A stretch of DNA of 64,000 nt from an uncultured Gemmatimonadales bacterium (GCA_963748815.1 CAVVKJ010000019.1:49907-113906), one strand, 5' to 3'. Positions 8,512-39,018 are shown, numbered from the stretch's first letter. Notes: a model not told the origin generated them from the letters alone. A program made the numbers and translations.

Positions 8512-8537
8512 AGTATGTCACACCCCTCTGACATCTT
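8512..8537. promoter_or_regulatory. Bidirectional PafBC-type promoter motif
   Basis: + strand TGTCAC-N10-CATCTT (8516-8537); - strand TGTCAG-N10-CATACT (8533-8512). Confidence 0.65.
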
Positions 8538-8593
8538 GGCCTTTCACGTTAGTTGGTCTGACCGGAGCATTGACCAGGAGGAGAGGGAACCCG

Positions 8594-8959
8594 ATGCCTG
8601 ACTGGAAACCGAGCCCGATTGCCGGGAAGTTCTACACCGTAGAGGACCTCATGAACCTGCCGCCGGCAGGATGCGTCAATCCCGCGAAGTCCCGGGAGGT
8701 GAGCCGGAACCTGCCGGTGCGGTTCTGGATGGAGACGGCCGAGCTGGTGGCCATTCTCGAGGCCAACATCGAGCTGATCAGGCTCAACCAGGAGCGGGCC
8801 AGCGCAGATGACGCCCGCCAGGCCGAGGTGCTGATTGCGCAGCGACGGCTCTGGGTCCGCCACCTGCTGGAGGCAGACGAGGAAGAGACCTTCATCGGCA
8901 TCTTTCCCGCGTCGTTCGCCGGCGACGAATACGATCAGGAGGAGGCCATCACCGGCTAG
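8594..8959 (+). CDS. Hypothetical protein, paralog 1 (G.F.TVE.LMNLP family)
   Basis: RBS-like ggaggagagg, open frame, clear similarity to the ORF at 15103-15387. Confidence 0.65.
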   Translation: MPDWKPSPIAGKFYTVEDLMNLPPAGCVNPAKSREVSRNLPVRFWMETAELVAILEANIELIRLNQERASADDARQAEVLIAQRRLWVRHLLEADEEETFIGIFPASFAGDEYDQEEAITG

Positions 8960-9017
8960 TTCCTCTTCGCGACTTCGCGTGAGCCGAATCAGTTCACACG
9001 AAGTCGCGATCTTTCAC

Positions 9018-9060
9018 CTCACCCCCTGTCCCCCTCTCCATGATATGGAGAGGGGGAACG
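9018..9060. repeat. Family-C palindromic hairpin (CCCCTCTCC..GGAGAGGGG)
   Basis: cccctctccatgatatggagagggg; related copies at 30656-30740 and 52185-52211. Confidence 0.8.
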
Positions 9061-9070
9061 CCGAGCGAAG

Positions 9071-10327
9071 CTACGGCATCCGCATCTTCCTGCCGAGGAG
9101 GTCTTTCGCTTCCCGGATGTTGTAGGACTCGAAACGCTCGCGCTTGAGCGAGTACTGGTCGAACCGCTCCCGGTGCCTGTGGGCCAGCTGTTCCAACTCG
9201 CGCACCAGGCGCCGCATTTCGGGGTCATGTCCGGCGTACTCCTTGATCCGACGGGCGGTGGCCAGCAGTACGCTGCGCGCCTTCTCCAGTTCGCCGATCC
9301 GGTTCAGCTCGGCCGCTTCCTCGCGGGCCTGGGCGGCGTAGCGCTGGGCCACGGCGAGGTCCACCGACTGGTCGCGCACCTGGGCGTCGTTGGCGGGGTG
9401 GTCGGCGTACTCCCACTCGATCCGCTCGGGGCGGACCTGCAGTACACCGTCACGATCGGCCAGGGAGACACTGATACCGGAGCTGGCGCCCATGGCACCG
9501 CGGGGGAACGTCACGCGGAGTACCGCGTCCACCTGCTGGCGGCTGACGAGGTCGTCGAGCGCGACTTCCACGGTGCGGCCGTTTCGGGTGACGCGGCGAC
9601 CGTCGAGCGAGTGAATGATCAGGCCGGGGTCGGCTTCGACGACGACGCTGGCGTCCCGTGACACGACCTCGAGCGCCTCGCCCAGTTCGCTCATCAGGAA
9701 ATCGGCAATCTGTTCCGGACGCTCGAGGTAGTAGAAGTTCCCGCCGCCGGCCCGGGCCATGCCCTCCATGAGCCGCTCGTCGAAATCGCGCCCGATGCCG
9801 AAGGTGCTGGTGGCGACGCCGCGGGCGCGGAGTTCGCCGGCATGCGTTTGGAGCGCACCCACGTCGGTGATGCCGGCGTTCGCCAGGCCGTCACTCAGCA
9901 GCAGCGTGCGGGCGACGGTGTTCGCGCGCTCGGCGCGAGCCACCTCTTCGCAGCCCGTCAGCCAGCCGCCGGAGAGGTTGGTGGAGCTGCCGGAATCGAG
10001 ATGGTCGATTGCCGAGAGGAGGCGGCGCTTGTGGTCGTGATCGAGGAGCGCGCCGCCGGCCAGGAGCTCCACCTCGGTGTCGTAGGCCACCAGGGCCACG
10101 TGGTCGCGGGGGCCGAGAAGTTCGACCGCGCGGCGGGCAGCCAACTTCGCCAGTTCCAGCTTGTCGCCGTCCATCGAGCCCGACTTGTCGATGACGAGTG
10201 CGACGTCGAGCGGCAAACGTTCGCGCTGACGCGGGGCCTCGGGGGCGGTGAAGCGGATGCGGACATAGCGGGTGCTGTGGACGCCGGCGCGGACCAGCCT
10301 CCGGTCGGTATGGATGTGCAGTGTCAT
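9071..10327 (-). CDS. von Willebrand factor A domain protein
   Basis: MIDAS DKSGS, STNLSGG, LLSDGLAN. Confidence 0.9.
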   Translation of the reverse strand: MTLHIHTDRRLVRAGVHSTRYVRIRFTAPEAPRQRERLPLDVALVIDKSGSMDGDKLELAKLAARRAVELLGPRDHVALVAYDTEVELLAGGALLDHDHKRRLLSAIDHLDSGSSTNLSGGWLTGCEEVARAERANTVARTLLLSDGLANAGITDVGALQTHAGELRARGVATSTFGIGRDFDERLMEGMARAGGGNFYYLERPEQIADFLMSELGEALEVVSRDASVVVEADPGLIIHSLDGRRVTRNGRTVEVALDDLVSRQQVDAVLRVTFPRGAMGASSGISVSLADRDGVLQVRPERIEWEYADHPANDAQVRDQSVDLAVAQRYAAQAREEAAELNRIGELEKARSVLLATARRIKEYAGHDPEMRRLVRELEQLAHRHRERFDQYSLKRERFESYNIREAKDLLGRKMRMP

Positions 10328-10854
10328 AGACCCTCCCCAGTATTGATGAGCCGATCGGCGAGTTCGACCAGCCGACTCACCAACTTCGTCTCGTGGTGTG
10401 ACAACGGGCTTCGAACGTGCATCTCGATGTTGGGGGTGAGGGATATCCGCTCCCAGGAGTCGCGGGAGCGTTGGGAAGGGGTGGCGACCGTCCGCTGCGG
10501 GGTCCGTTCCGCGCGGAAGAAGGGGGTTTCGCGTTCGGCGCCCATCCGGATGGAGCGGGCGTAGTCGGCGGCGGATTTGCGGCGCTGCTGAACCTCGGCG
10601 AGGGTCCTGGCCACCTCGGCGTCGTCCATCGGGGCCAGCCGGTCCTGGATCTCGGCCAAGGTCAGGCGCTCCTTTTGGAGGGCCCGGATGAGCTCGAGGC
10701 GCTGGACATCGGAGTCGCCGTAGAGGACCTTGACCCCGCGGAGGCCGGGGGAGTCCATCAGCCCTTCGTTCTGGTAAAACCTTATGGTACGGACACTTAG
10801 ACCGGTGGCGGCGGCGAGATCCTGGATGGAGAGGTCGTCGGAGTTGAGGAGCAT
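10324..10854 (-). CDS. MerR-family HTH regulator
   Basis: LSIQDLAAATGLSVRTIRFYQNEGL; ATGA overlap with vWA. Confidence 0.85.
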   Translation of the reverse strand: MLLNSDDLSIQDLAAATGLSVRTIRFYQNEGLMDSPGLRGVKVLYGDSDVQRLELIRALQKERLTLAEIQDRLAPMDDAEVARTLAEVQQRRKSAADYARSIRMGAERETPFFRAERTPQRTVATPSQRSRDSWERISLTPNIEMHVRSPLSHHETKLVSRLVELADRLINTGEGL

Positions 10855-10861
10855 GGCAGTA

Positions 10862-10890
10862 AATGTACAGTTTGACTGTTATACTGTCAA
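10862..10890 (-). promoter_or_regulatory. Sigma70 promoter with overlapping inverted-repeat operator; likely leaderless merR mRNA
   Basis: TTGACA-N17-TACATT, then 7 nt to ATG; palindrome TTGAC-N9-GTCAA at 10872-10890. Confidence 0.75.
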
Positions 10891-11605: not shown

Positions 11606-11623
11606 GCAATCAGCGAACCCTGC

Positions 11624-11645
11624 TGTCACACCCCCATGCGATTGT
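11624..11645 (+). promoter_or_regulatory. PafBC-type promoter motif
   Basis: TGTCAC-ACCCCCATGC-GATTGT upstream of the ATG at 11679. Confidence 0.55.
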
Positions 11646-11678: not shown

Positions 11679-12089
11679 ATGGACTACCCGTCGAACCCAC
11701 TAACTCTCTTTCCTCCTGCAATCCATGAGCTGCTCGACCGGCAATGCAAGTCCTGGAAGCCACACCACGCCGCACTTGTTGTTGTCTTTCGTGTATGGCA
11801 ACTCGGTGCAGCGCTTCGGTGGAACGTGGCGCCTCCTCCCTGTTCTACGGATTGGTGCGACTCGAATTGGCGTGTGAGCTCCGACCGACTTGGCTGGCTG
11901 GCCGAAGGCAGGGAGTACGTCCGTCGGAGTTCGGGCCTCACTTCATCAGCCTCGTGGCGGGGTGGAGTTGGGCCGGCCGGAACACGTTCCTCATCGGGGG
12001 TTTCCGCCTGCCGCATCGTACACGCCTCAAGCGGCGGTACCGCGGAGTCTCCGCATGCTGAGCGGGCAATCCAGCGCCGCGCAGCGTGA
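11679..12089 (+). pseudogene. Degenerate/frameshifted hypothetical gene
   Basis: ATG after the promoter motif; coding signal switches frames, no family recognised. Confidence 0.3.
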
Positions 12090-12787: not shown

Positions 12788-13564
12788 CTAGAATGCCCTT
12801 TCTGCGGCTTGGAGGCAGCAGGAGATGGAGCACGCGCATTGAATGGCCAAGGCGAGCATCCTACGCCAGGCCACCATCTCCATGCGAAGTCGGTACTCGT
12901 CGCGAGGAGGATTCTCGGGGAAGCAGACCGCGTCGCCTCGGCGGATTCGCCTGGCAGTCCAGAGGCCAGCGAACGCATTGAGGATGTCATCCGCCTCACA
13001 GCCGAGGTCTTGGCGTGCGGTGAGGGCGGCATCGATAGCTCCCCCAAACTCCGTCCGAAGGAGTCCCGCCCGTCTTGCCTGACCTTCTGGTGAACGCTTC
13101 TTCGCGACAATCGGCTCGCCCCCCGCCAGGTGAAAGAAGCAGAGCTCGGGATGGACTTCGCGCACATGACCCCGGAGGGAGGGGTCACCCCGCATCAGAT
13201 CGTCGACCTCACGAATCTTCGGGAGGATTGCCCAGGCCTGTTTCGACAGGGCCCGACCCTCGATGCGGCGCCCGATGGCACAGGCGTCCGAATAGGTGGA
13301 TGCCGTGAGCATCGGCCGGATCGGGGCCGTGAACACTGAACGACCTCTCGGCTGTCCGAGCAGTTGGCGCGCCGCGATGTCGCACTCGCGGCTGCCAGAC
13401 GACATCAGCCCTATCGGGATATCAAGCGCCAGAAGTTCCGGCGGGTTCGGTGAATCAAGAAGAGCCCGGACCGACGGCACGACCTCCCAGGAGATTCGCC
13501 CGTCCGCACTCTCGCGGATCACGGCCCAGCCGCCCTTGCACCCGTCCGCTCCGGCAATGATCAC
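12788..13564 (-). CDS. DUF429 family predicted RNase H-fold nuclease
   Basis: IAGADGCKGGW, LDIPIGL, RECDIAAR, REVHPE, DDILNA. Confidence 0.85.
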   Translation of the reverse strand: MIIAGADGCKGGWAVIRESADGRISWEVVPSVRALLDSPNPPELLALDIPIGLMSSGSRECDIAARQLLGQPRGRSVFTAPIRPMLTASTYSDACAIGRRIEGRALSKQAWAILPKIREVDDLMRGDPSLRGHVREVHPELCFFHLAGGEPIVAKKRSPEGQARRAGLLRTEFGGAIDAALTARQDLGCEADDILNAFAGLWTARRIRRGDAVCFPENPPRDEYRLRMEMVAWRRMLALAIQCACSISCCLQAAERAF

Positions 13565-13592
13565 GAGGCGGCACCACCTTCTCAACGGAGAA

Positions 13593-14754
13593 TCAGCCAC
13601 GCTTCACCTGACACTTCGCCAACTCTACCAGCACCCCGTGACACCCGATCCCCACAATCTGCACACGCCAACGCTGGGCCACCGTCCGCGGGACCCGGGC
13701 GGCGTGCGAGCCGGGGTTCCGGTCCTTCGCCAAGGCGTCGAGAATGGGGGGCAGCTGCGTCGCGTACCACCCGCCGTTCTCCAGCCGCTTCCCCAGGAAT
13801 TGCGCCCGCTCACGGTCCCCGCCGATCACGCGCGCAAGCTGCCCAAGCGACAGCGAGCCGCTCCGGGCCAAGTCCTCCGTCGAGCCATCGATGTTCGCCA
13901 GCCGGATCGCCTCCGGCGCGTCTTGCAACGCACAGAGAAGGATCCGGTTCACCTGTACTTCGACGGCCTTGGCCAACGGCCCCATCGACGCCTGAAAGTC
14001 GAAGGCGTCATCCTCCCGATGATCGCGGAACACCTTCTCCCCGGTCGCGACAAACGTCCGGGCAACCGGATTCGAGGGCCTGCCACGCGGCGTCCCCGAG
14101 GAGATTCTCGCGAAGCTCCCGCTGCATCAGGCCCGTCCCCCCCGATTCCGCGTCAAATTCCGCCCAATACCGCCCCTCCGCGAGGGGCGCGTAGGCCGCC
14201 TCGTCGAAGTACCGATGGCCATCGGGCCGGATCACCACCAGCGGCAAGTCGACCATTCCTCCGTAGAGGGAAACGGGACGGTCGTGGTAGTGGACATTCC
14301 GGAGATGACGAACCTCCTCGACGACGGAAAGGGTGTCGTCGAGCACGAGTCGTCGGATGTCACGAAGCCTGAACCAGCAGTCGCACCGGAGATCATCCTC
14401 GCGGTAGTACACGGGCAGGTGGTCCGGATCGACGCTGGCAACGTCCTCGAAGGTGATCTCGTCCACGTCCGCCACATAGAGCGAACGGTAGTCGGTCAGG
14501 TACAGCTGCAATTCGCGGGTCTGGTCCTGGCGCAACTCCTCCGCCATCCGCTTCAGGTCGTCGCCGTGCGCCATTCCCTGCTGCCGGTTTTCGGACCGAA
14601 TCTTTCCCCACCAGACGTACACGTCGTCGTCGTCGGACTTGCGCTCTCTCCAGGCCTGGATCCGTGACAACAGGATGCCCAGGTGCGCCTCCATCGCATT
14701 CGACGCATAGGCCGGATTCCAGACACCGAGGAGATGCTGAACGGGAGGGTTCAC
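13593..14754 (-). CDS. HP0729-like protein with a C-terminal HEPN-like RxxxxH motif, one frameshift near 14060
   Basis: QHLLGVWNPAY...EAHL...WWGKIRS, LYLTDYRSLYV; C-terminal KAVE...RNPGSH. Confidence 0.55.
13622..13643 (-). promoter_or_regulatory. PafBC-type promoter motif inside the 3' end of the upstream gene, about 58 bp before DUF429
   Basis: TGTCAC-GGGGTGCTGG-TAGAGT. Confidence 0.5.
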
Positions 14755-15032
14755 GGGGCCGCCGTTGGGGTGGGTGGGAGGTGCCGGGCTCAAGATGTGG
14801 GTACCTCCGGGAGGGCACAACCGGCCGTGGGCTCAGCCGGGGGGAAGCACAAGATGAATGCGAGAGAATTGCCGGTATTCCTCAACATTGCACGAATAGT
14901 TGGCAAAAACGCCAAAAAGCAGCGGTTTCCACGGCTTTTTGCTCATTTCTTGCTCGACATTCCCACAATTGCCTACTGCCGGGACGCACCGGCTCGCACC
15001 CAGACACACCCGGACGAGAGTACTGACGCCCC

Positions 15033-15066
15033 TGTCACGCCCCCACCCTACCTTGGGACTCTGACA
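15033..15066. promoter_or_regulatory. Overlapping bidirectional PafBC-type promoter motifs
   Basis: + strand TGTCAC-N10-TACCTT (15033-15054); - strand TGTCAG-N10-TAGGGT (15066-15045). Confidence 0.7.
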
Positions 15067-15102: not shown

Positions 15103-15387
15103 ACGCCACAGCACCCCCGCCGTGAGCAGATCATCGGCAGGTTCCACACGGTCGAGGAGCTGATGAATCTCCCCCAGGCCGCCCCGGTCAAGCTCTCGAT
15201 GGGCAGGGAGGAATTGTTCGAACTGCAGGCCATGAACATCGAGATCCACCAGGCCAACCAGATGGAGTGTGCTCCGGAGGATGCCCGTCAGAACGCGATC
15301 CTCACGGAGCGGCGGCAGCTGGGGATCGACTGGCTGAGCCAGCGGGTGGAGGATAGCTTGAGGAGAAGTCGGCGCAGGCGACCCTGA
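15103..15387 (+). CDS. Hypothetical protein, paralog 2 (start codon appears as ACG)
   Basis: GRFHTVEELMNLP...NIE...EDARQ aligns to ORF 8594; context ggggaacctca-ACG-CCA mirrors gagggaacccg-ATG-CCT. Confidence 0.55.
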   Translation, partial: TPQHPRREQIIGRFHTVEELMNLPQAAPVKLSMGREELFELQAMNIEIHQANQMECAPEDARQNAILTERRQLGIDWLSQRVEDSLRRSRRRRP

Positions 15388-15404: not shown

Positions 15405-15503
15405 ATGGAACAGCCACAACTCGCCTGGATTGCCAACTTCATCTGGGGCATCGCGGACGATAGTCGAGCGGTGGGGGGATTGTCGGCGGAGAGTATCGAT
15501 TGA
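15405..15503 (+). pseudogene. hsdM: 5' stub of a type I R-M methyltransferase (first ~19 codons), then unrelated sequence
   Basis: MEQPQLAWIANFIWGIADD is a typical HsdM N-terminus; similarity stops at 15461. Confidence 0.7.
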
Positions 15504-18500
15504 GTCACATTTCTCTCAACGCAGTCGTCAAGAGCGACCTGCAAGAGATTGTGCTGAGGATCGTTAGGCTCCGGGATGAGCCGAGTGACCTTCAGGCGCG
15601 CCTCCTCGGGCTTCGTCAGCAGTTTGAGCGGGCCATTCGACTTCTCGTTCTTGATCCAACGAGGGCATTCCCCGATCACTTCGAGCGCCTCTGCTACGTT
15701 TCGCAAAAGCACTCGCTCTCGACAGATCTCGTTACCCAGCTGCAGCGGACTCGAATCAGGCTCAACAAGATCGTCCATGAGGTTAGTGCGAATCCGAGTG
15801 AACAAGACGTTTCCGAAACCGCGGCCGTGTTGCTCGCCCTGCTCCACGTGTTCGGACTCGCCCCAACGCCAGCACGAACAGCTCCACCACCACCTCCCAC
15901 CACGCAACTCGCTCCGCCGGCTCTTCCTCGCACAAGGATCCGGCCGGCCGAGGGAACTACCCCATCGCCGCCGTCGATCGGCGTCACTGGACGAGAAAGC
16001 GTCCCTGTCTCAACCACGCCTCCAACTGTTGGCGGACGGACAGCTGTCGCATTCGCGCGAGTCTTCGTCCTGGAGGTGGGTACTGCAGGCAAAGAGGGCC
16101 ACAAGAGCCTCCGCTGCAGACACGAAGACTTTGACGACCTTCTCACGGTCGAGCTACACATCCCGTGGGCCGATACTGATGTGGTGTCCTTCTCAACGCT
16201 TGCGTTGCACACAGTAGAGCAGGTGTCGCCATTGCTCTGGCGCACCACCGCCGAGAGTTTCGTTGTTCTGGAACCGGACGTACTTGTGCAGGCTACCGAC
16301 ATCGCGACCTGTTTCCAATCGAGCCCTCCCAGCCACCTCCTCTATGTCTCCTCGCTGCTGAACTCGGTGCAACAAACCCGCCCGATGGCACAGGGCATCG
16401 TCGCCAATACCACCTTCAACATGCTCCTTGCTGAGAACGATGGTACGCCTCCGGAGTCTCTTCTCGCTCGGGCATGTGATGCTCACGCTGAGGCACTTGG
16501 CAGCTTACCGGGCGAGGTGGATGCCGATGTCCGACGCGCCATCCGCACGGACCACCTCGAGGCCCTGACTGAGATCGCGGCACGGCTTCGCAAGCATCAC
16601 ATTACGGTCGAGCCGGCTCTATTCACATCTCAGTTTGGTTTGCAGGGCCGCCCCGACGTCCTTGTTGAGCGCGATCAGTCATCCAGCTACGTGGTGGACT
16701 TGAAGACCGGGAAGCCCCCGAGAGAAGATGCGGACCCGGAATGGCCGGCGATGGAAGGCGTGAGAGGCTCCTACGCCAAGGAGGCTGCCCAGTTGGTGTG
16801 TTACGACCTTCTGCTGGCCGGTCGAGGTCCCACTGGGCCAACGCATTATCTCTTCTACTCGGCAGCTGGCGCCAAAGCCGGGGTGCGGGCTATTCACGTC
16901 ACGTACGAAGCGCGGCGTGATGTCATCCGAGCACGTAATCGCATCATCGCGGCTGAGCGGACAGTGCTGCTGCCCCCATCTGCCGAGACCGCCTCGCTGA
17001 CTATGGCGGGACTGCCGCCGAGACTCCCGCCCTACGCCCGGGAGTCTCTCTGTTGGCTGTGGCTCGTTACCGAGCCATCTGTAGTCCCGACGCTCCACGT
17101 ACGGACACCTTTGTCGGCGACCAGGTGCGTTCGGTCATGCAGCAGACGTGGCGCGCACGACTGGGAGGGGGCACGCAGTATGAAGGATCTGGTTTTGCCT
17201 CCCTCTGGCGTGAGCGTGACCTGATCCTCAAAGCGGCAAGTTTGGGCGTGCTGGCGTTTCTTCGCTACGCAAGAATGGAAACGGTGGACAGAAGACAGCT
17301 CTATCATTTCACGCTCGACGCATCGAAAAGCCAACCCTTTATCACTGCTGAACTTCGCAAAGACGAGCCGATCGTCCTGTACCCTCACCTGGATCGCTAC
17401 GTCGACCATTGAACGGCCCGATCATTAAGGGTCGACTGAAGCTCGTCGAGCTTGGTGCCGCCGAGCCGCGGGTTGTAGTGGAGTGTTACAGCGCCACCGC
17501 CGAGGCGCTACTTCCGCGGCACGCACATTGGGCTATTGAGCGCGACTATCTCGAGTCGAGCGGCCGCGCCGCATTTCCGGGGCTCGCCCGGCTGCTGTCC
17601 ATCGATCCCAATCGGTTGTCCCTCCTTCTCGGTGACCGAGCTCCCCTAGGCCCAGCGCCGACACTCGCCTCGACAACCACCGGTGCAGGGACCACGCTTC
17701 AACAGATCGCCGTCGCTGCCGCCGAGTCCCAAGAGTATTTCCTGAATTCAAGGCCCACCCGGAACGGGAAAGACGAGCACGTTACTCCCAGCCATCGTCA
17801 AGCTTGTGCTTGATGAGCGACGCACACCGGTGCTACTCCTCGCCGATGAGTAATCGAGCTGTGGACGAGATGCGGGCGGCAATGAGCAGGCATCATTTCG
17901 TGCTTGATCCTTTCCGTGAGGATCGGCTGAGCGCGCCGGAATCGCCAAGCGCACCCGGTGGGGCCAGTATTGTCTTTCGAGAACGATTGGCAAAGACCGA
18001 GGTGTACGCCATGACGGTTGCCCAGGCGCAGAAGCGCCATGCTTGGCTGGAGGCGATGGCGTTTGACACCGTAGTCGTGGACGAGGCCTCGCAGTTGCTC
18101 GACAGCCAGTTACGGGGGATCCTCAGCACCGCAACACGATTTGTGCTGATTGGCGATCAGCGACAGTTGCCACCTATCCAGCCCGCTGTGGCGGATGCTG
18201 ATGGTGAGTCCGAGGGTGGCGAGGTCAAGCCTTCGACATTTGAGCGCTTGCTGGACAAGATGCACTAGCGAGCGGGTGGGACTACGCGTATGGCATGCTC
18301 GAAGAGCAGTGGCGCATGCACGAAGAGATCCAGGCGTTTCCAAGCGCAGCCTGCTATGGGGGGCGGCTCCGCATCGGTCAGCCAGTGAGGCAGCGTGCCA
18401 GAGAGTGGGTGCGGTTGAGGCCATGGGCAGACAGCACCCGTAGGGACCCTATTCGCCCACCGCGTGGCGTTCGTGTCGGTCCCGGATGATCATGCACAGG

Positions 18501-22813: not shown

Positions 22814-22850
22814 GTTGCCCTACGCCCCTTTCGTGCCCCCGCCTTCTTCT

Positions 22851-29263: not shown

Positions 29264-29268
29264 GGATG

Positions 29269-30036: not shown

Positions 30037-30319
30037 ACCTCACACCCTGGTGCGAGCATAGTATCGGTATCACGTACCATGAAGTTGCCTCGACTGCCGA
30101 CTAGACATCCAATGGAAGGACAAGATGTGGAGATGTTGACGTCAGGACTCACCTAACCATGAATGCGATCGGACCGACACGGTGGACCAAGGGTTTGTGC
30201 TTCAGCTTGGACCGAACTTCCAAATGTACCCACTGGATATACCCGCGATAGGGCAGTGTCCTGCCGTGGCGAGCGAGCTTTGCGGGGCCAGACTGCTCCC
30301 GCCTCGGCGCTTGGCCTGC

Positions 30320-30583
30320 CTACCTCGGCACCACCCTTCGCTCCCCGAACACCTCGGCGTCCGCACCGACGCACTTGTAGTCGAGCACCTCTGGAAGATC
30401 GCCGGCGTGCAGGTAGCTGGCGCCCCCGACCTGGCCGGTGGAGGAGTAGATCTCGAAGTTGACCTCGCCGTCGAGCACGAGATGGATCTGCGCCAGGTTG
30501 CTCTTCTCGCCACGGGCCACGTTGACCACCACCGCCTCGATCCGCTTCCCGATCAGATGCTGCCAGCCACCCTTGATGGACAT
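30320..30583 (-). CDS. Small hypothetical protein
   Basis: RBS ggagg, follows the promoter motif at 30645. Confidence 0.55.
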   Translation of the reverse strand: MSIKGGWQHLIGKRIEAVVVNVARGEKSNLAQIHLVLDGEVNFEIYSSTGQVGGASYLHAGDLPEVLDYKCVGADAEVFGERRVVPR

Positions 30584-30623
30584 CCATGCCTCCAAGTCGT
30601 TTGACCTCCCTCAGGTGGCCCTG

Positions 30624-30645
30624 ACGATACGGTGGGGGTGTGACA
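30624..30645 (-). promoter_or_regulatory. PafBC-type promoter motif heading the defence gene run
   Basis: TGTCAC-ACCCCCACCG-TATCGT. Confidence 0.7.
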
Positions 30646-30655
30646 TTCCCTGACG

Positions 30656-30740
30656 TCCCCCCTCTCCAGGAGGGAGAGGGGTTGGGGGTGAGGGGGTACC
30701 CCCCCTCTCCGCTAGCCGGAGAGGGGGCCGGGGGGTGAGG
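30656..30740. repeat. Two family-C hairpins after pafC (possible terminator role)
   Basis: ccctctccagggggagagggg-like and cccctctccgctagccggagagggg. Confidence 0.7.
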
Positions 30741-30744
30741 ACGA

Positions 30745-31689
30745 TCATTCCAGGATCTCCTTCAGCCCCTGCGCAATCGCCTCCCGAATTTCCTTCGGCT
30801 CCACCACCTCCGCATCCGGGCCGTACTGCAGCACATGCCGGAGCGCCCAGTGCGGGTCGGCCAGCGGGTGCTCGAGCGTGACCGTCCCGTCGGCCTCCAC
30901 CGGCACCCACTCCCGCTCCGCCACCCACCGCGCCACCCGCGCCGAGTACCGCACGGTGAGCGTCCCCACCCCCTCCGCCACGAACATCTTCCGCTCCCGC
31001 AGCACGGCATCCACCGAAAACTCCGCCGGCACCTCGAATTCCTCGTCGGTCACCTCCACCGCGTCCATCCGGTCCAATCGGAAGAACCGCAGCCCCGTGG
31101 CCCCGTCCGCCAGCGCCACCAGGTACCAGCTCAGCTCGGCGTACACCACCGCCAGCGGCGCCGCCACCCGCGTGGCCGCCGCGTCCGCCCCGCTCTTGTG
31201 ATAGGAGAACCGCACCCGCGTCCGTTCGCGCACCGCACCACGCAGCAGCGAGAGCATCTCGAGGTCCACCGCCCCGCCCAGCGACGCCGAAAAATCCTTC
31301 TCCTGGATGTCCTGCCCCGGCAGCTTGGCGATCACCTGCCGTAGCCGCTCCCGCGCGCCGTCGATGGCCCGCGTCTCGTCCGGCGGCCGCTCGGCGCGCA
31401 GCATCGCGAGCCCCAGCTCCAGCGCGCAGAGCTCCGGCAAGGTGAGCCGCATCGGGCGGAGGAAGTGATCGGACCGTACCGCCACCTGGTCCGTCTCCAG
31501 GAAGATCTGCACCCCCTCCACGAACCCGCCCGGATCGTCGAACCGCTCGGCGAGGGACTTGAGGTCCTGCAGGAGTGTCGGGCGGTCTACCCCCGCCTGC
31601 TCCGCCACCTCGTTGATGGGATGCGAACGGTCGTCGGCCAGCGTCGGGATCAGGTGCAGGATCCGCCGGAGCTGCAGCGCCGCGCTCAT
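30745..31689 (-). CDS. pafC: PafC-like HTH-WYL-WCX transcription regulator
   Basis: QLRRILHLIP...QDL, RPMRLTLPELCAL, SWYL, FRLDRM, LQYGPDAEVVEP. Confidence 0.8.
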   Translation of the reverse strand: MSAALQLRRILHLIPTLADDRSHPINEVAEQAGVDRPTLLQDLKSLAERFDDPGGFVEGVQIFLETDQVAVRSDHFLRPMRLTLPELCALELGLAMLRAERPPDETRAIDGARERLRQVIAKLPGQDIQEKDFSASLGGAVDLEMLSLLRGAVRERTRVRFSYHKSGADAAATRVAAPLAVVYAELSWYLVALADGATGLRFFRLDRMDAVEVTDEEFEVPAEFSVDAVLRERKMFVAEGVGTLTVRYSARVARWVAEREWVPVEADGTVTLEHPLADPHWALRHVLQYGPDAEVVEPKEIREAIAQGLKEILE

Positions 31690-32753
31690 CGGGCGTAGAT
31701 CTCCGCCGTGGCGCCGGCCATCGCGCGGTACTCGGCAATCAATTCCTTCGGCGCCACCGGCGTCGCGTCACCCGCCAACGACAAGAGCCACCGCGCGAAA
31801 GCATCCACCCGCCGCACCTGGAACTTCCGCCGGTCGGGATGATTATTGACCGGTGCGCCGAGGCGGGCGGCGGCACGCGCCGGGCCGGAGCGGCGGTCGA
31901 ACTCCACCTCCGCCGTCATCGCGTGGCCGTCGCCCAGTTCCCACGCCTGCCGGGACTGTGCGTGCTTCTTCAGCGAGAACTTCTCCGGTACGGCGTAGTC
32001 CGGCGTCCCCGGTGCCTGCCCATTTGCTGCCGCTCCCGTCATCCGGCTCAACCGGAAGTTCTTGACGATCTCTTCCTCCGGCGCGCGCGCCGCCAGGTAC
32101 CAGTGCCGCCCCAGGAAGAAGAGCCCCATCGGCTCGACGGTGCGCTCCGCCTCCTCGTTGCGACCCATCGATCGATACGTGAAGGTGACGCGCTTCCGCC
32201 GCTCCAGCGCCCCGGCCAGCACGTCGAAAATCTCGTCGTGATTCTCGACCGGACCCGCCACCTGCACTTCAGGCGCGCGGGACGCATCCACCGGCAGGTC
32301 GAACGCCAGCTTGCGGCACGCCGAATCGGCCAGCGCCGCCAGCTCCGGCACGCCCAGCGCCCGCACCCGCGCCGCTGCCTCGGCCACCGCCGCGAGCTCG
32401 TCCGGCTCGAACGCCAGCCCGGCCAGCGCCTTGTAGCCGTAGCGGTCCACCCGCTTCGGCGCCGTCTTTCGTCCCTCCACCACCATCGACAGATACGGCA
32501 GATAGAATTCCTTCGCCGCCAGCCGGTATCCCTCGGCCTCTCCCTCGGGCGACAGCACCGTCTCGATCGGCACGCCGAAGGCGCGGAGCTCGTCCTTGTC
32601 CCGCTCGAACATCCGCCGGAGCGCCGCCTTGCTCTGCTTCCCTGGCTGATACCCCGGCACCTCCTGCGCCAGCTCGTCAAATGAGACGGCGTACCGCCGC
32701 CTGAGGAGTGCGGCGAGCAGATCAATCCAGCGCTGGAGCTTCGGTGCAGCCAT
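31686..32753 (-). CDS. pafB: PafB-like HTH-WYL-WCX transcription regulator
   Basis: RRMFERDKDELRAFGVPI PafB signature, RTVEP.G, HWYL, FRLSRM. Confidence 0.8.
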   Translation of the reverse strand: MAAPKLQRWIDLLAALLRRRYAVSFDELAQEVPGYQPGKQSKAALRRMFERDKDELRAFGVPIETVLSPEGEAEGYRLAAKEFYLPYLSMVVEGRKTAPKRVDRYGYKALAGLAFEPDELAAVAEAAARVRALGVPELAALADSACRKLAFDLPVDASRAPEVQVAGPVENHDEIFDVLAGALERRKRVTFTYRSMGRNEEAERTVEPMGLFFLGRHWYLAARAPEEEIVKNFRLSRMTGAAANGQAPGTPDYAVPEKFSLKKHAQSRQAWELGDGHAMTAEVEFDRRSGPARAAARLGAPVNNHPDRRKFQVRRVDAFARWLLSLAGDATPVAPKELIAEYRAMAGATAEIYAR

Positions 32754-35700
32754 CAGTCCGCCTTGTCGTTGACACCGGGACACCACCCGACCCGCTTGTA
32801 CCCGCAGAACCCGCATTCCTTCGGATGGGCGGTCAGCTCCGCGCCGCCCGCGTCGATGGCGGCCAGCGCGTCCTGCACGCGGCGCCGCGCCCCGGCCCGC
32901 TCTTCATCATCGATCGGCGTGCTGACCTGCGTCTCGGCGCGCGAGTACTGGAACGCGAACCGCGCCACTGGCATTCCGCCGATCGCCTCGGCGGCGGTCA
33001 CGTACACGTCCCGCTGCAGCGCGTACCGGGCCGCGTTCGCGGCCGCCGCCGCGGCGTCACCCTGCGTGGTCTTCACGTCGAGCAGCACCAGGCCATCCGC
33101 CTCGCGGGCAGCCAAGTCGATCATCCCCTCGATCTGCCGGTCCGCTCCCACCAGGTGCACGAACGGCAACTCGTGGCGGCTGGTCGGGTTCTCGGCCACC
33201 GCCCGATATTCCGCTTGCTCGGCCACCAACCGGATCTCCTCGCGCAGCATCTCGCGCAGGTCGCGCTCCTCCGCCGAGTCGGGCGGCATCGCCGAATCAT
33301 CCCACCGACCGATCGCGGCATCGAGCAGCGCGTCGGTGTCGGCCTCCTCCTGCATCTGCTCCAGCACGTCGTGCACGATCTGCCCGCGCGCGATGGCGCC
33401 GAGGTATCCCTGTCCCGTCCGCTCGACCGGCGGCTCCTTCAGCCCCGCCACGTATCGCAGCCAGTGCCGCCGAGCGCAGCGCCCGTGACTCATCAGCGAG
33501 GTGGCCGAATGGCGCGCCGGACCCACGGCCACCGGGAGCGGGCCAACCTGCGCCGGCAACTCCGCCGGGAGCGGCTCGACCCACGGATCTGGCGCCTCGA
33601 CGGACGGTACCGGGGGACGAGGTGGTGCGAGGTGCACCGTCGCCACGAACTTTCGTCCTCCCTGGCCGGCATACTCAACCTCCCCCCCGTCGACCACCGG
33701 CACGGCGAGTCGTCCCAGCAAGGCTCTGGCTGGGGCAGCTCCACTGCTGGTCGCGCCGCAGACTCCCGCCAGGGTCGATCGCTGCTTGGCCCGCGTGGCC
33801 GCCACATACCAGAGGCGCTTGTGCTCCGCGGCCGACTCCGCATCCTGCTCCGCCTTCAGCGCCGTCCACTCGGCGGGCTGCGGGTCATCCTTGCCGGCAT
33901 CGGGATCCTTGAGCGCCAGCGTATCCCGGCCGATGAGGCAGGCGTCGGCGCCCCAGCCCCCGCCGGTCACCGGTTTCCGTTCGAGGTCGCACCAGAAGAC
34001 GGTGTGCCACTCGAGCCCTTTGGCGCTGTGGATCGTGGTGAGCGTCATGACATCGTCGGTCGGGCCGTACAGCCGTTCATCTCCTTCTCGATCCTCGCGA
34101 TCGCGGATGTCCCTGATGATCTGCAGGAAGTCGCCCACGCTCGAACCCGACTGCTGTCGGGCGATGCGCAGGAACTTTCGCACGTTGGCGATCGCCTGAT
34201 TCCCCTGCGCGCCCTGCAGCACCAGGTGGCCCAGGTAACCGCTCCGGTCGAGAAGCCCTTCGAGCAGTTCGTGGATCGGCACGCGATCCCGAAGCACCAT
34301 CCGTTCCCGCAGCAGCTCGATTCCCTCGGCAAGCCGTCCGGTTTCGGCCGTGACCGCCTGCGCCAGCGCATCCCACTGCGGCGAGTCCCCCTGCCAGGCG
34401 ATCTGTAGCAGCGTTTCGTCCCTGAGCCCGACGAAGGGACTCCGCAGGAATCCCAGGAGCGCCCGGTCGTCCCGCGGATCCCGGATCGTCTCCAGCGCGA
34501 GGATGAGATCCAGCACCTCGCGCCGCTGGTAGAGTCCCTCGCCCCGCAGGGTGTAGGTCGGGACACCCGCCCGTTCCAGCGCCCGCTGGTAGATCTCCAC
34601 GTCTCCCATCCCGGCAAAGAGCGCCGCCATCTCACGGTATGGGACACCCTCCGCCTTCAGCTGCACCGCACGGCGAGCCACCGCCTCCGCCTCCGCCATC
34701 CGGCGCGGTTCCGCGGTGAGCGGCTCGCCGTCGGCGTCGCCCGGCACCACCAGGATTTCCACGGCCCGGTCCGCTGGTCCCTCGGTGGTGTCCACCGCCG
34801 TGACCGAGCGGTAGTTCACCTCGAAGTCCCGGATCGTCGTCCCGTCGATCGGCGTGTCGAGCACCGGCCCGACGGTGGCATCCACGAACCCGAGAATCGG
34901 CGCGACGCTGCGGAAGTTGTCCTCCAGCGCCACGACCGTGCCCAGCCCGCCCTCCTCGAACGCCCGCTCGACCCCACGCCAAACCGTCACGTCGGCGCCG
35001 CGGAAGCGGTAGATGCTCTGCTTCGGGTCGCCGACCAGCATCAGGCGTGTGGTATCCGCTCGACCTGACTCAGGGTCGGCCAGCAGCCAGGCGATGTCCC
35101 GCTGCACCGGGTCCACGTCCTGGAACTCGTCCAAGATCAGTGTCCGCAACCGGCGCTGCAGCAGCCGTCGAACCGATCCGTCGTTCCGCAGCAGGTCCCG
35201 CGTCCACACGATCATCCGATCGAAATCGATCGCGCCCTCGTCTTCCAGTCGACGCTCCAGCAGCAGCCGCGCCCGCTCCGCCAGCTCGGCCACTGCCCGC
35301 TCGCCCTCTCCGAGGCGCGTCGACTGCCGAATCCTCCTCAGCCGGTCGCCATCGCCGAGGAGGCGACGCACCCACCCTTCCACCTCGTCCTGGCGGCGCT
35401 GGGCCAGCAGGGCCTCCAGCCCCGGCACCGCATCCGCATCCAGCGCCTCGATCAGTGCGTCGCGCACCGCCTCAGCGGCCCGTGACCCGCTCTCCCCCTC
35501 CTCGAGCACGTTCATTCCGGGGTTCTGACCCGACCGCAGCGCCGACTCGCGGAGGATGTCACCACAAAATCCGTGGATCGTCCCGATCCGCGAGTTGTCG
35601 ACCTGGTAGGCGACGTCGCCCAGTCCCGCCTCCCGGAGTGCCGCGCGGAGCTTGCGTTTCAGGTCGGCGGCAGCGGCGTTGGTGAAGGTGATCGCCCCGA

Positions 35701-35878
35701 TCTCCTGCAGGTCGATGGGCGACTCGATCCGTTCTCCCCCCACCTCCGCGCCGAGGAGGTAAAGGATGCGCGCCACGACGGTGGAGGTCTTGCCGGTGCC
35801 GGCTCCGGCCGCCACCAGCACGTGGCGGTCGACGGCGCGGATCGCCTGCCATTGCGACGGCGTGGGTTGCCGCCTCAC
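32753..35878 (-). CDS. addA: AddA/AdnB-like UvrD helicase-nuclease
   Basis: AGAGTGKT, ITFTNAAA, DEFQD, VGDPKQSIYRFRGA, TIHSAKGLE, YVAATRA; nuclease GMID...DVK with 4 Cys. Confidence 0.9.
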   Translation of the reverse strand: MRRQPTPSQWQAIRAVDRHVLVAAGAGTGKTSTVVARILYLLGAEVGGERIESPIDLQEIGAITFTNAAAADLKRKLRAALREAGLGDVAYQVDNSRIGTIHGFCGDILRESALRSGQNPGMNVLEEGESGSRAAEAVRDALIEALDADAVPGLEALLAQRRQDEVEGWVRRLLGDGDRLRRIRQSTRLGEGERAVAELAERARLLLERRLEDEGAIDFDRMIVWTRDLLRNDGSVRRLLQRRLRTLILDEFQDVDPVQRDIAWLLADPESGRADTTRLMLVGDPKQSIYRFRGADVTVWRGVERAFEEGGLGTVVALEDNFRSVAPILGFVDATVGPVLDTPIDGTTIRDFEVNYRSVTAVDTTEGPADRAVEILVVPGDADGEPLTAEPRRMAEAEAVARRAVQLKAEGVPYREMAALFAGMGDVEIYQRALERAGVPTYTLRGEGLYQRREVLDLILALETIRDPRDDRALLGFLRSPFVGLRDETLLQIAWQGDSPQWDALAQAVTAETGRLAEGIELLRERMVLRDRVPIHELLEGLLDRSGYLGHLVLQGAQGNQAIANVRKFLRIARQQSGSSVGDFLQIIRDIRDREDREGDERLYGPTDDVMTLTTIHSAKGLEWHTVFWCDLERKPVTGGGWGADACLIGRDTLALKDPDAGKDDPQPAEWTALKAEQDAESAAEHKRLWYVAATRAKQRSTLAGVCGATSSGAAPARALLGRLAVPVVDGGEVEYAGQGGRKFVATVHLAPPRPPVPSVEAPDPWVEPLPAELPAQVGPLPVAVGPARHSATSLMSHGRCARRHWLRYVAGLKEPPVERTGQGYLGAIARGQIVHDVLEQMQEEADTDALLDAAIGRWDDSAMPPDSAEERDLREMLREEIRLVAEQAEYRAVAENPTSRHELPFVHLVGADRQIEGMIDLAAREADGLVLLDVKTTQGDAAAAAANAARYALQRDVYVTAAEAIGGMPVARFAFQYSRAETQVSTPIDDEERAGARRRVQDALAAIDAGGAELTAHPKECGFCGYKRVGWCPGVNDKAD

Positions 35879-38800
35879 ACCGCCTCCCGCGGCCCGCCGG
35901 CCACTCGGCAGATGTCGCGCGCATGGCAGAACGAGGGACAGCCGCAGGAGGGCGGCGGGTTGGCGGGGAATGCGCCGCCGCGCACACTCAGGACGTGGCG
36001 CACTACGGCGTCGAGCGCGGCGTCCATCCGGGTCGCGTCCTCACCGCCGGTGAGCAGCGTCTTCGCCTTGCGATCCACGCTGACCAGCTGGAGACTGTGC
36101 ACCGCCTCCCGCTGCTTCAGCGCGCGATACTCCACTCGCGATACCACCGTGCCCGGCCGCAGCGCCGAAAGGGCGTGGGCGTAGAGCGGCACCTGGAGCA
36201 CCACCCCCTCGTCCCACGCCTTCTTCTTGCCCCCGCCCGGCGCGGCGTACTTGCTCGACTTGTAGTCCACCGCCGCGACGTAGTGGCTCGACTCGACCCG
36301 CTCGTCGATGCCGACTTCCACCCGGTCGATGGTGCCCCGGAACCGGAACCGGACGCCTCCCCGTTCGAGGACCGCGTCCGTGAAGCTCAGCTCGTGGCGC
36401 TCCACGCCGGTCCGGAGCACGAACGCGTTGTTGGTGCGATTGTTGAACAGCTTCTCGTTGTAGGCGATCTCGAACTCGAGGTAGCGCGTCAGCATCCGCG
36501 CCATGTTGGCCCGCTTCGCGGGGGCGAGGGAGGGATGGCCGAGCCAGTCCGTCTCCCCCGAGGCGTCGAGGGCCGCGTCGAGCGCGGCGCGGAGCCGCGG
36601 GATCGCCTCCGCGTGGTCGCCCTTGAGGAGCAGGACCGGCTCGCCGCGCCGCGCAAACTCCCCGTCGAAGAACCGGGCGAGCGCGTCGTGGAGGACGGTA
36701 CCGAAGGTCCTCGGGTCCATCTCGTCTTCCGGATCCTTCCGTTCCGAAATGCCGAGCAGCCTCGACGAGAAGTACGCCCAGGGACACTTGGCGTACGCCT
36801 CGAGCTGGGTCGGGCTCCAGAGGTACTCGTCCCCGAACTGCCGGCCCAGTCGCGCGACGAGGTCCCGATCGGTGATCTGGCCGTTCCAGGGACCGGGCAG
36901 ACCCCTGGCTCGGTCCAGCTCGACGCGCGCCGCATACTCCGCCTGTCGCGCTGCGCCAGGAGTCGCGGCGATCCGCACGCCGGGCGTGAGCACGCGCGAC
37001 GGCGTCAGGGTGTCCTCCGCGAGCGTCGCCACTTCGCCGAGCGCCTCGATGAACGCGCTCCGCACCACTTCCCGGCTGGCCGGATCGATGCTCGCGTACG
37101 ATACCGTGAGCGACTCCTGGGCTCCCGCAACAAGGACCCGGAAGAGTTCGCGTTCGCGGCGCTCCCACTCGGCGCGGAGCTCCAGCGAAACGCCCCCTGC
37201 CACGAGCGACGCCCGCTCCGATTCGTCGAGCAGTGGAGAGCCGGGCGCGCGCACCGGGAAGCGGCCCGACTCCATCCCCACCACGAACAGGTGGCGGACA
37301 TGCCGGTACATCCCGGCAAGACCCTCAACCACCGGCACGCCCCGCCGGTTCGGCGACCAGAGCGCGATCTCGTGATCCAGCAGGTCGGTGAGTTGTGCGT
37401 GGAGATCCACGGCGCCGAGCGCGGTCGGGCTGGAGCCCCACTCCTCGACCGCCGTTTGCCACTCCTCCACCAGCGTCGTCAGTCCCTTCCATCCCTGGAG
37501 GTCGAGCCGCACCACGTCGAACCGGTCGCCCGGGACGCGCTCGATGCGCGCCTTCATCTGCCACGGATCGTCGGTGAGGAACCGGTGCAGCCAGGCGAGC
37601 CACTCCCTGAGCGGCTGGCGGACGTCGAGTTCGCGGGCCTGCGCAGCGAATCGGTCGAAGGTGGCTGATTTGCCGTCGGGCGCTGCATCTCGAATGGCCG
37701 CCGCCCACTGCTCCAGGCCGCTCACGCGGCGCGCGAACCCGATCGCGTTGATCTGCGCGGCGTCCACGTCGTTCTCGAAGTACGGCTGGTCGGCCAGCTC
37801 CGCGAGCCCGTGCCGGGACCATCCGTCGGCGGCGGCGCCGAAGAGCGCGGCCAGGGCGCGGACCACGGGGATATCGCGCAGTGCGTGCCGGCGGCGCAGG
37901 GTGGCGGGCACCCCGAACCGTTCCAGCGCGGCGGCGGCCATCTCGGTATAGGGACGGGCCTGGCGGGCCACCACCGCCATCCGGTGCAGCGGGACCCCGT
38001 TGTCCGCCAGTTCCCGGATGCGGCGCGCCACTTCCTCCATTTCGCGCTCCACGTCCGGCGCGGCGATGACCGCGACCGTTCCGGTGCGTGCCGTCGGGGA
38101 TGAACTGAATAGCCGGGTGGCGATTGCCTCCGGCTCCTCGAGGCGCTTCACGGTCGGCGCGAGATCGTCACGGAGGTCGAGGAGTTCCGACGAGTAGATG
38201 GTGATGCGATCGAGGGCGGGGTGAGCGCGAAGCGCGCGGAGGAGTGGGCGCCACCCGTTCCGGAGATCCTGCAAACCGAAGAGCCGGAGCTCACGGCGGC
38301 CGCCGAGCTGCTCGGTCGTCCGGTCAGGATCGGCCAGAATGGCCTGGGCGCAGTCCGCCCAGCCATCGCGTCCGTCCCGGCGCCCCGCGGCATTGAGTGC
38401 CTCGAGGTACCCGGCGTAAATGGCCGCGAGCTCGGCATCGCGCACCTGCTCGAAGTCGTCCCTTCCGTCCCGCCCCGCCAGCGCATTTGCGAAGTGCGCC
38501 GGTTCGACTCCCTCACTGACCAACTCACCGATGAGCCGATCCACCGCCGAGAGGAATCGTTCGAGGTGCCTGAGCCGGCCGAGGAGGCCGGTGGCGCGCT
38601 CGCGGATCAGGCGGGCGAGAAGGGTGCGGCGGTCGAGCTCGGTCAGCGGCCGCCGATCGGTCCGGCCCAGCCACGTCGGGAGTTCCTGGAAGGTGAAGAG
38701 CGGCGGATCATACCAGCCACCCACCCCCCGTTCGAAGGCGAGGGCGTAGAGGTCATCCCGGATGCCCCCCTGCCGGAGCGCCAGGACGACCGATGGTGAC

Positions 38801-38919
38801 GGGAATGGATTCTCTGGGGTGGCACGTTGTGGGACCAGGAACTCCGCCGCCGCCTGCTCGAGCAGCAGTCGGGGATCGGTGCCGAGGATCAGGTGCAGCT
38901 CGGCCTGGGCAGTGGCCAC
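35875..38919 (-). CDS. addB: AddB/AdnA-like inactive helicase-nuclease
   Basis: SPTQLEAYAKCPW, GTVLH, GTIDRV, VDYK, LQVPLY, C-terminal Cys cluster; no Walker A. Confidence 0.85.
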   Translation of the reverse strand: MATAQAELHLILGTDPRLLLEQAAAEFLVPQRATPENPFPSPSVVLALRQGGIRDDLYALAFERGVGGWYDPPLFTFQELPTWLGRTDRRPLTELDRRTLLARLIRERATGLLGRLRHLERFLSAVDRLIGELVSEGVEPAHFANALAGRDGRDDFEQVRDAELAAIYAGYLEALNAAGRRDGRDGWADCAQAILADPDRTTEQLGGRRELRLFGLQDLRNGWRPLLRALRAHPALDRITIYSSELLDLRDDLAPTVKRLEEPEAIATRLFSSSPTARTGTVAVIAAPDVEREMEEVARRIRELADNGVPLHRMAVVARQARPYTEMAAAALERFGVPATLRRRHALRDIPVVRALAALFGAAADGWSRHGLAELADQPYFENDVDAAQINAIGFARRVSGLEQWAAAIRDAAPDGKSATFDRFAAQARELDVRQPLREWLAWLHRFLTDDPWQMKARIERVPGDRFDVVRLDLQGWKGLTTLVEEWQTAVEEWGSSPTALGAVDLHAQLTDLLDHEIALWSPNRRGVPVVEGLAGMYRHVRHLFVVGMESGRFPVRAPGSPLLDESERASLVAGGVSLELRAEWERRERELFRVLVAGAQESLTVSYASIDPASREVVRSAFIEALGEVATLAEDTLTPSRVLTPGVRIAATPGAARQAEYAARVELDRARGLPGPWNGQITDRDLVARLGRQFGDEYLWSPTQLEAYAKCPWAYFSSRLLGISERKDPEDEMDPRTFGTVLHDALARFFDGEFARRGEPVLLLKGDHAEAIPRLRAALDAALDASGETDWLGHPSLAPAKRANMARMLTRYLEFEIAYNEKLFNNRTNNAFVLRTGVERHELSFTDAVLERGGVRFRFRGTIDRVEVGIDERVESSHYVAAVDYKSSKYAAPGGGKKKAWDEGVVLQVPLYAHALSALRPGTVVSRVEYRALKQREAVHSLQLVSVDRKAKTLLTGGEDATRMDAALDAVVRHVLSVRGGAFPANPPPSCGCPSFCHARDICRVAGGPREAV

Positions 38920-38954
38920 GCTCGGCTCCGGACGTCGAAGAGGATGGAGGGGTC

Positions 38955-39018
38955 AATCTCACCCCGGCGTGTGACAGACCTTCATGCTCCAGGGATTGTC
39001 ACACCCCCATCTCAAGGT
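38955..39018. promoter_or_regulatory. Divergent pair of PafBC-type promoter motifs
   Basis: - strand TGTCAC-N10-GAGATT (38976-38955) toward addB; + strand TGTCAC-N10-CAAGGT (38997-39018) toward the acidic ORF. Confidence 0.7.

Follow-up and report, generated by a model that had tools for sequence, protein, structure and literature searches.

Candidate PafBC-type promoters around a PafB/PafC regulator pair on an accessory island of an uncultured Gemmatimonadales bacterium

To our knowledge, PafBC and the sigma adaptation associated with it have been studied only in Actinobacteria. There the subunits are encoded in tandem, pafB before pafC, in the pafABC/Pup-proteasome locus, and combine a helix-turn-helix (HTH) with WYL and WCX domains (M. 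smegmatis, PDB 7P5X and 9FND; fused A. aurescens form, 6SJ9). The mycobacterial regulon runs to ∼150 genes, recA among them. Its promoters are reported to follow the consensus tGTCgg(N10)tA(N3)T, in which an element at −23 to −28 is read by the PafB HTH and a −35 element is lacking (Müller et al. 2021, PMC8635444). The same paper terms PafBC actinobacterial and describes its mechanism as possibly widespread 'in mycobacteria and other actinobacteria', and 'PafBC-like' domain architectures in several phyla are mentioned in reviews (PMC6789036, PMC7617703). Here we describe a 64-kb stretch of DNA from an uncultured Gemmatimonadales bacterium (GCA_963748815.1, CAVVKJ010000019.1:49907-113906; hereafter the window), in which a pafB-pafC pair lies among ten copies of the motif TGTCA(C/G)-N10-nAnnnT; our literature search returned, among the matches listed, no study of PafB/PafC orthologues, or of the promoter motif that goes with them, from Gemmatimonadota.

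Judged from its sequence, the system is a PafBC by orthology, residues and promoter geometry, and it differs from the described ones in phylum, hexamer, genomic context, regulon size and the exclusion of recA. Shared with actinobacterial PafBC are the tandem genes for orthologous HTH-WYL-WCX subunits, the GTC element with its 10-nt gap to the −10 hexamer and no −35 element, the key arginines, and the occurrence of apparently fused forms. On the other hand, TGTCA(C/G), frequently with ACCCC after it, takes the place of TGTCGG as the hexamer; the pair adjoins addB and addA rather than the Pup-proteasome genes; and the predicted targets are about ten sites on one island. Mycobacterial pafBC is not damage-induced according to a review (PMC7617703), whereas the present pair sits within its own predicted target operon, which makes autoregulation likely and would give positive feedback. 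Mycobacterial adnA is reported to be exclusively PafBC-dependent (PMC8682763), and control of an end-resection enzyme would therefore be a shared target class. A further WYL activator, DdaA of Moraxellaceae, is described as linking the DNA damage response to restriction-modification (RM) and CRISPR defence genes (PMC12392091), so that such coupling is not in itself a new concept. As reported, DdaA is a single protein that replaced SOS genome-wide, whereas here a heterodimer-type pair is predicted, LexA and RecA are present and the targets appear confined to an island.

Both strands of the window were scanned for the pattern (TGTCAS-N10-NANNNT), with 100 dinucleotide-preserving shuffles as control. 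This gave 11 matches against 1.63 expected (standard deviation 1.34, maximum 6), and 0 of the 100 shuffles reached 11, which upholds the motif observed in an earlier reading of this DNA (the original prediction). Each of the ten sites listed there was recovered with its coordinates and strand; no match lies past 39018, in keeping with the lack of sites noted for 39.1-64 kb; and the ACCCC extension ascribed to several sites is found, as ACCCC or GCCCC, in five of the ten. The matches, with the merR gene, are as follows.

38955-38976, minus strand: candidate PafBC-type promoter of the addB-addA-pafB-pafC operon, ending 36 nt ahead of the GTG start
38997-39018, plus strand: divergent candidate PafBC-type promoter of the small acidic protein gene 39095-39307 (pattern match; relatives' loci)
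30624-30645, minus strand: candidate PafBC-type promoter of open reading frame (ORF) 30153-30587 (pattern match; orthologous promoters)
10382-10403, minus strand: candidate PafBC-type promoter within the merR 3′ end, 55 nt ahead of the VWA gene 9071-10327
10324-10854, minus strand: MerR-family regulator gene, with its own canonical promoter TTGACA-17-TACATT at 10890-10862
8516-8537, plus strand: strong-core site (pattern match) before a gene of unknown function, 8594-8959
8512-8533, minus strand: weak-core site TGTCAGAGGGG, mirror of 8516(+), before the GDSL/SGNH hydrolase gene 7865-8458
11624-11645, plus strand: strong-core site; the downstream ORF 11679-12089 is not convincingly coding
13622-13643, minus strand: weak-core site (pattern match) before the DUF429 gene 12788-13600
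15033-15054, plus strand: strong-core site before 15163-15387 and a broken Dna2-like nuclease-helicase (15500-19322, five ORFs)
15045-15066, minus strand: weak-core site, 225-252 nt ahead of the HP0729/Pua-like gene 14008-14820
23969-23990, plus strand: eleventh pattern match, within the methylase ORF 22851-24431, judged a chance match

Genome-wide (3.16 Mb assembly on 19 contigs, 86% complete, intergenic status by a crude gene call), the loose pattern has 44 matches, of which 17 are intergenic and 8 of these fall in the site-bearing stretch. That stretch also holds 6 of the 24 genome copies of the octamer TGTCACAC and 5 of the 8 copies of TGTCACACCCCC with ≤1 mismatch. The flanking sequences of the sites are mutually unrelated, and an Rfam scan of 7000-40000 gave no family at gathering score. 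The sites share one larger unit:

7346-39417, no strand: 32-kb accessory island with all ten sites, the regulator pair and AddAB

Its accessory nature follows from congeners in which the flanks lie close together: in G138 the counterparts of the window's left part (to 7345) and right part (from 39418) are only 1.45 kb apart, and in G151 and G307 the flanks are likewise close.

The spacing within the motif was determined without preselection for a −10 element, on all TGTCAC[AG]C cores of the window and 23 related loci (n=49), many of which are background genic TGTCACGC. Position 18 is A in 28 and position 22 is T in 30 of the 49 cores, no other downstream column exceeds 16/49 for A or T, and the −35 columns are flat in composition. 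Among the 30 TGTCACAC cores, nAnnnT follows after exactly N10 in 24 and after N11 in 2. If nAnnnT is taken as the −10 hexamer (−12 to −7), TGTCAC falls at −28 to −23. On that assignment the motif is a directional two-part element made up of a GTC-containing hexamer at −28 to −23 and a −10 hexamer, with no −35; it matches the mycobacterial geometry with TGTCA(C/G) in place of TGTCGG, the variant-hexamer architecture that had been proposed.

Most transcription units of the island have the motif ahead of them; it is retained in orthologous promoters and, within the phylum, occurs together with the pair. As the original prediction had it, sites stand ahead of the operon holding pafBC and the helicase-nuclease and ahead of the defence genes and genes of unknown function clustered around it. 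Among named records, PafC is matched most closely by four loci of three uncultured Gemmatimonadales metagenome-assembled genomes (MAGs; 91-96% identity) and then by a Gemmatimonadota MAG at 52%, which places the system outside Actinobacteria, as claimed. In these relatives the motif occupies four positions: before addB, divergently before the acidic protein gene, after pafC before the homologue of 30153-30587, and in the merR 3′ end before the VWA gene, where the site 10382-10403(−) is kept in loci L001, L003 and L004. Across five orthologues of the addB promoter the conserved blocks are TGTCA.A and (C/G)AGATT, and across five orthologues of the 30624-30645 promoter, which lies 3′ of a terminator-like hairpin, TGTCACACCCC and ATCGT are invariant. 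The flanks of orthologous promoters have diverged apart from the ribosome-binding/start region, leaving the TGTCA(C)A block and the −10 hexamer as the conserved promoter elements. The hairpin, a G+C-rich element CCCCTCTCC...GGAGAGGGGGG at 30660-30700(−) that is also conserved at orthologous loci, stands between the pafC stop and the next motif and likely ends the addBA-pafBC transcript.

We extended the comparison to 20 further loci of the phylum, with PafB identities of 33-60%. The pafB-pafC tandem is present in 24/24 Gemmatimonadota loci compared, and actinobacterial loci likewise carry pafB followed by pafC. A forward TGTC-N12-nAnnnT lies ≤350 nt upstream of pafB in 11 of the 20 loci, against ∼1 expected from the background of the same loci; L040 carries an N11 version. 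PafB itself is patchily distributed: at E ≤1e-10 it was found in 88 of 301 genomes sampled across the phylum, and in only 1/5 other sampled genomes of the same genus. We then counted a strict pattern, TGTCASASSSS-N6-nAnnnT, with the reversed pattern as control, in 300 genomes (87 PafB-positive, 213 PafB-negative). The strict pattern occurs 2.78 times per PafB-positive genome and 1.08 times per PafB-negative genome, and the reversed control 1.01 and 1.38 times, respectively; the motif excess in PafB-positive genomes is specific to the true pattern.

Elsewhere the genes behind the motif include those for PafB itself (L043, L050), a DUF2779 protein, an RNase T-type exonuclease and an HD protein, and in other genera those for VWA (L038, L040), YbjN/TY-Chap3 (L042, L110) and Big_2 (L054, L110) proteins. 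Several of these, namely the Ig-like Big_2 proteins of ∼500 aa, the YbjN-type chaperone-like proteins and the VWA proteins of ∼418 aa, do not obviously belong to DNA repair classes. Of five near-complete genomes in which site locations were mapped, G215 and G198 have clusters near pafBC; G215 also has a distant divergent pair, and in G257 a cluster of TGTCAGACCCC sites lies ∼0.5 Mb from pafBC. The G257 cluster and the distant G215 pair rule out a strictly local regulon as a rule for the phylum, and strict locality is therefore a feature of the window genome.

The regulator pair is encoded in an operon of four minus-strand genes whose stops and starts overlap.

35875-38919, minus strand: AddB-like nuclease subunit, first gene of the operon (Pfam PDDEXK_1, 4e-29; NCBIfam addB_Gpos, 1e-19)
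32753-35878, minus strand: AddA-like UvrD helicase with PD-(D/E)XK nuclease (UvrD-helicase, 3e-49; PDDEXK_1, 4e-24; addA, 4e-65)
31686-32753, minus strand: PafB orthologue, HTH-WYL-WCX (Pfam WYL, WCX); likely start at Met22 of an ORF reaching 32816
30745-31689, minus strand: PafC orthologue, HTH_PafC-WYL-WCX (Pfam HTH_PafC, 1e-12; WYL; WCX)

In an AdnAB enzyme each subunit would have a UvrD-like motor and a nuclease and be closest to AdnA or AdnB. Here the second subunit is closest to AddA (best PDB match B. subtilis AddA, 3u44_A, 2e-42), and in the first, for which the PDB gave no sequence match, PDDEXK_1 and addB_Gpos alone are recognised; we therefore file the enzyme as AddAB-type rather than AdnAB.

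The best PDB matches of the window PafB are to M. smegmatis PafB (9fnd_X, 6e-21; 7p5x_AY, 2e-20), as against 2e-4 to PafC. Conversely, for the window PafC the PafC half of 6sj9, the fused A. aurescens protein, scores 5e-26 and M. smegmatis PafC 3e-9, as against 2e-4 for PafB. The window PafC also matches DriD-type chains (8tp8_A and related) at ∼1e-10 over the WYL-WCX part only. DriD, a homodimeric WYL-WCX activator of Caulobacter with a target site of a different type, is reported to be triggered by single-stranded DNA (ssDNA), a signal that the island pair would share in the mechanism proposed below. The assembly contains no WYL genes other than pafB and pafC, and the ESM Atlas returned Gemmatimonadota WYL/WCX clusters alone. 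In three Gemmatimonadota genomes (L001/L055, L037, L048) pafB and pafC appear as a single ORF, 671-724 aa long, comparable to the natural Arthrobacter PafBC fusion.

A FastTree phylogeny of 79 sequences (20 PafB and 18 PafC from Gemmatimonadota, 23 PafB and 18 PafC from Actinobacteria; no outgroup; L091 and L103 left out) separates PafB from PafC with support 100, and the Gemmatimonadota PafB (99) and PafC (98) clades each stand beside their actinobacterial counterpart. The single misplaced 'PafC', Act_PafC_L109, is accounted for by mis-extraction, its row being identical to a PafB row. By this topology the PafB/PafC duplication predates the split of the two phyla's versions; the outgroup-free tree is compatible with ancient descent or an old transfer of the pair and cannot tell between them. 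Together, the structural-database matches and the tree place the proteins, described only as PafB/PafC-like in the original prediction, as orthologues of actinobacterial PafB and PafC.

Residues with described functions point the same way. In M. smegmatis PafB, R46 and R50 are reported to contact two guanines of the GTC triplet (PMC8635444); the window PafB has RMFERDK (R47, R51) at the aligned position, invariant in 20/20 Gemmatimonadota PafB sequences. PafB R211/R214 and PafC R201/R204 are reported to be needed for ssDNA binding in M. smegmatis (PMC11804915). Their equivalents are FRLSR in the window PafB, in which R237 is invariant and R234 conserved in at least 90%, and FRLDR in the window PafC, in which R204 and R207 are invariant. 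By alignment, then, the GTC-reading and ssDNA-binding residues of M. smegmatis are kept in the window pair. The PafC HTH was aligned to the PafC half of 6sj9; E58, E65 and D67 lie in the neighbourhood of the residue expected to correspond to D/E62, which contacts sigma region 4.

Taken together, we consider it probable (roughly 0.7) that the motif sites are promoters read by the PafB/PafC pair in PafBC-type activation, and each further step of the mechanism is held with less confidence than this. In outline, ssDNA arising from damage or phage attack would bind the WYL domains and activate the pair. The PafB HTH would then contact the GTC element and the PafC HTH would replace the −35 contact of the housekeeping sigma factor, the heterodimer being placed between sigma region 4 and the DNA, so that the housekeeping holoenzyme could use promoters without a −35. 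The units switched on would be the addBA-pafBC operon and the genes for the VWA protein, the small acidic protein and ORF 30153-30587, with read-through from 30624 into a type III RM/GmrSD-like/TmtA-like defence cluster. PafBC-type transcription start is, on these sequence comparisons, probably not confined to Actinobacteria.

Several observations weigh against this interpretation. Within the window, three of the ten sites, 8512(−), 13622(−) and 15045(−), have weak cores; with the doubtful ORF behind 11624(+) and the 225-252 nt between 15045(−) and its gene, they narrow the claim that all sites point at a gene start to most of them. Besides the weak core of the DUF429 site at 13622-13643(−), none of 11 DUF429 loci of other genomes has a TGTCA[CG] site, and DUF429 is ruled out as a conserved regulon member. 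The N10 site is absent within 350 nt of pafB in 9 of the 20 further loci, 33 of the 213 PafB-negative genomes have at least three strict matches, and the Mann-Whitney P overstates the association of PafB with the motif, as related genomes are not independent. The tree is from FastTree only, without WYL outgroups from other phyla. A survey of sequencing runs for 30100-39400 gave DNA metagenome runs alone, with shares of 0.26 or less, and no RNA run. In a genome-wide scan that is partly circular, its weight matrix being trained on the same ten sites, these sites are among the top 11 hits (16.5-26.9 bits; the remaining one is genic). All intergenic hits outside are ≤15.4 bits, and no credible site was found off the 31-kb stretch in the 86%-complete assembly, which runs counter to the genome-wide regulon with recA and uvr genes that had been predicted. 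Both recA and lexA are encoded in the assembly; the recA upstream region contains no motif site and, at 86% completeness, no Pup_ligase match was found in the assembly. With recA not a target and no Pup ligase found, this is not the mycobacterial regulon.

Among other explanations, the pair could be a repressor of the island, with TGTCAC as a promoter-overlapping operator and damage relieving repression. WYL regulators of defence islands are often repressors, and the island holds defence genes as well as mirrored TGTCA...TGACA arrangements at two loci, 8512-8537 and 15033-15066. BrxR and CapW offer an analogy, being WYL regulators beside the defence genes that they control on mobile DNA; they are, however, single homodimeric repressors with palindromic operators, whereas the island has two paralogues and directional sites locked to a −10 hexamer. 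Since the sites are mostly single and directional, the distance to nAnnnT is fixed (N10 in 24 of the 30 TGTCACAC cores, N11 in 2), there is no −35 for a polymerase acting alone and the proteins group with activator PafBC in the tree, we regard repression as unlikely.

It is less likely again that the motif is read by another factor, be it the island's MerR-family protein or an alternative sigma factor. MerR-type activators do work at oddly spaced promoters, and a merR gene is at hand; yet tblastn finds a MerR homologue in only 4/25 loci, sites stand beside pafBC in many loci without one, and merR has a canonical promoter of its own. No sigma gene was found in or beside the island, and a 10-nt gap is too short for a −35/−10 pair.

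We give slightly less credence still to the possibility that the sites are ordinary housekeeping promoters, with (T)TGTCA serving as a variant −35 element and the true −10 placed 5-6 nt further downstream, even though a consensus scan reads 38996-39023 as TTGTCA-16-TAAGAT and T is mildly enriched before TGTC (16/49). Positions 23-28 show no A or T conservation in the 49 cores, and the motif is rare genome-wide and enriched only in PafB-positive genomes; on column composition we reject TTGTCA as a −35 element. Finally, that the sites are chance matches or repeat-element copies without a regulatory role, as the frequency of (CTTCGCGN)n in the same intergenic regions might suggest, can be practically discounted given 0/100 shuffles at the count, the unrelated site flanks, the retention of only two motif blocks in orthologous promoters and the status of the CTTCGCG repeat as a separate element that also occurs away from sites.

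With PafBC-type activation as the preferred interpretation, the predicted regulon in this genome is one accessory island with about ten sites. Relative to L003 and L004, the island has an extra 19 kb of lower G+C content (55-62%) between merR and the 30624 promoter, with the following contents.

19-kb segment: split type III methylase, Res genes, GmrSD-like, TmtA-like GHKL/NOV_C, DUF6946, DUF429 and HP0729/Pua-like genes, and the broken Dna2-like nuclease-helicase

Between 30036 and 19502 the co-directional genes lack sites of their own, and it is for these defence genes that we infer read-through from 30624; a terminator scan gave weak candidates only, no more than in shuffles. The Dna2/MkoA-like nuclease-helicase at 15500-19322(+) is broken into five ORFs, and at 20227-25304(−) the type III methylase is split (24573-25304, 22851-24431) and a short Res gene is followed by an overlapping 317-aa ORF; parts of the defence cluster look decayed from their sequence.

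More tentatively, PafBC-type sigma adaptation may be ancient and phylum-crossing, and in Gemmatimonadota an 'alarm island' may move the sensor pair together with its own promoter and an end-resection enzyme, with incoming defence cassettes becoming inducible by ssDNA or damage, either by landing behind such a promoter or by gaining one with the −26 element. If so, the pair would be a portable switch joining genome-damage sensing to immunity, without a Pup-proteasome and beside an intact LexA/RecA system. On mobile DNA, the island would connect a damage sensor with an end-resection enzyme as well as with restriction-type defence genes, which fits what is reported of DdaA (PMC12392091). Should PafBC-type activation hold in a Gram-negative phylum, the mechanism would be independent of actinobacterial polymerase accessories or re-fitted to another housekeeping sigma factor. 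The hexamer variants TGTCAC, TGTCAG and TGTCGG, beside an invariant RMFERDK helix, form a ready series for study of how the −26 element is read.

Of the genes behind single sites, 8594-8959 has no orthologue in the fetched loci, and the GDSL homologues of L003 and L004 have no pattern match ahead of them. The small acidic protein encoded at 39095-39307(+), divergent from addB, has 70 aa, is extremely acidic and contains NIFDDPYIYFMFED, an EERREERR stretch and a poly-D/E tail; its homologues in relatives (50-70 aa) are 56-70% identical, and possible roles are those of a DNA mimic or an SSB-tail-like protein.

The genome holds 29 copies of a short tandem repeat, (CTTCGCGN)2-4, in most cases with TGAG after it; 25 are intergenic by the crude gene call and 16 are on the 114-kb contig C19.

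7411-7434, 7826-7849, 8468-8499, 8965-8980, 11298-11329, 39030-39053, 39329-39344, 39438-39453 and others: (CTTCGCGN)n repeats

Both borders of the 32-kb island have copies, as do two of the 5′ leaders, and near-identical 30-nt matches are found in all congeners. Since the repeat is dispersed through intergenic DNA, elsewhere as well as near the sites, it was ruled out as a promoter part; it may mark a recombination hotspot or cassette boundary.

The left flank, 5942-7868(+), encodes an RHH protein, an AbiEii/DUF2204-type nucleotidyltransferase, a Macro-domain protein and a PDDEXK_3 protein, and by these annotations the island's surroundings are rich in conflict-type genes. Window positions 2600-7346 recur as a second copy at 1941-5614 of contig C3 of G000, with 85% identity over ∼3.2 kb and 95% over 0.5 kb.

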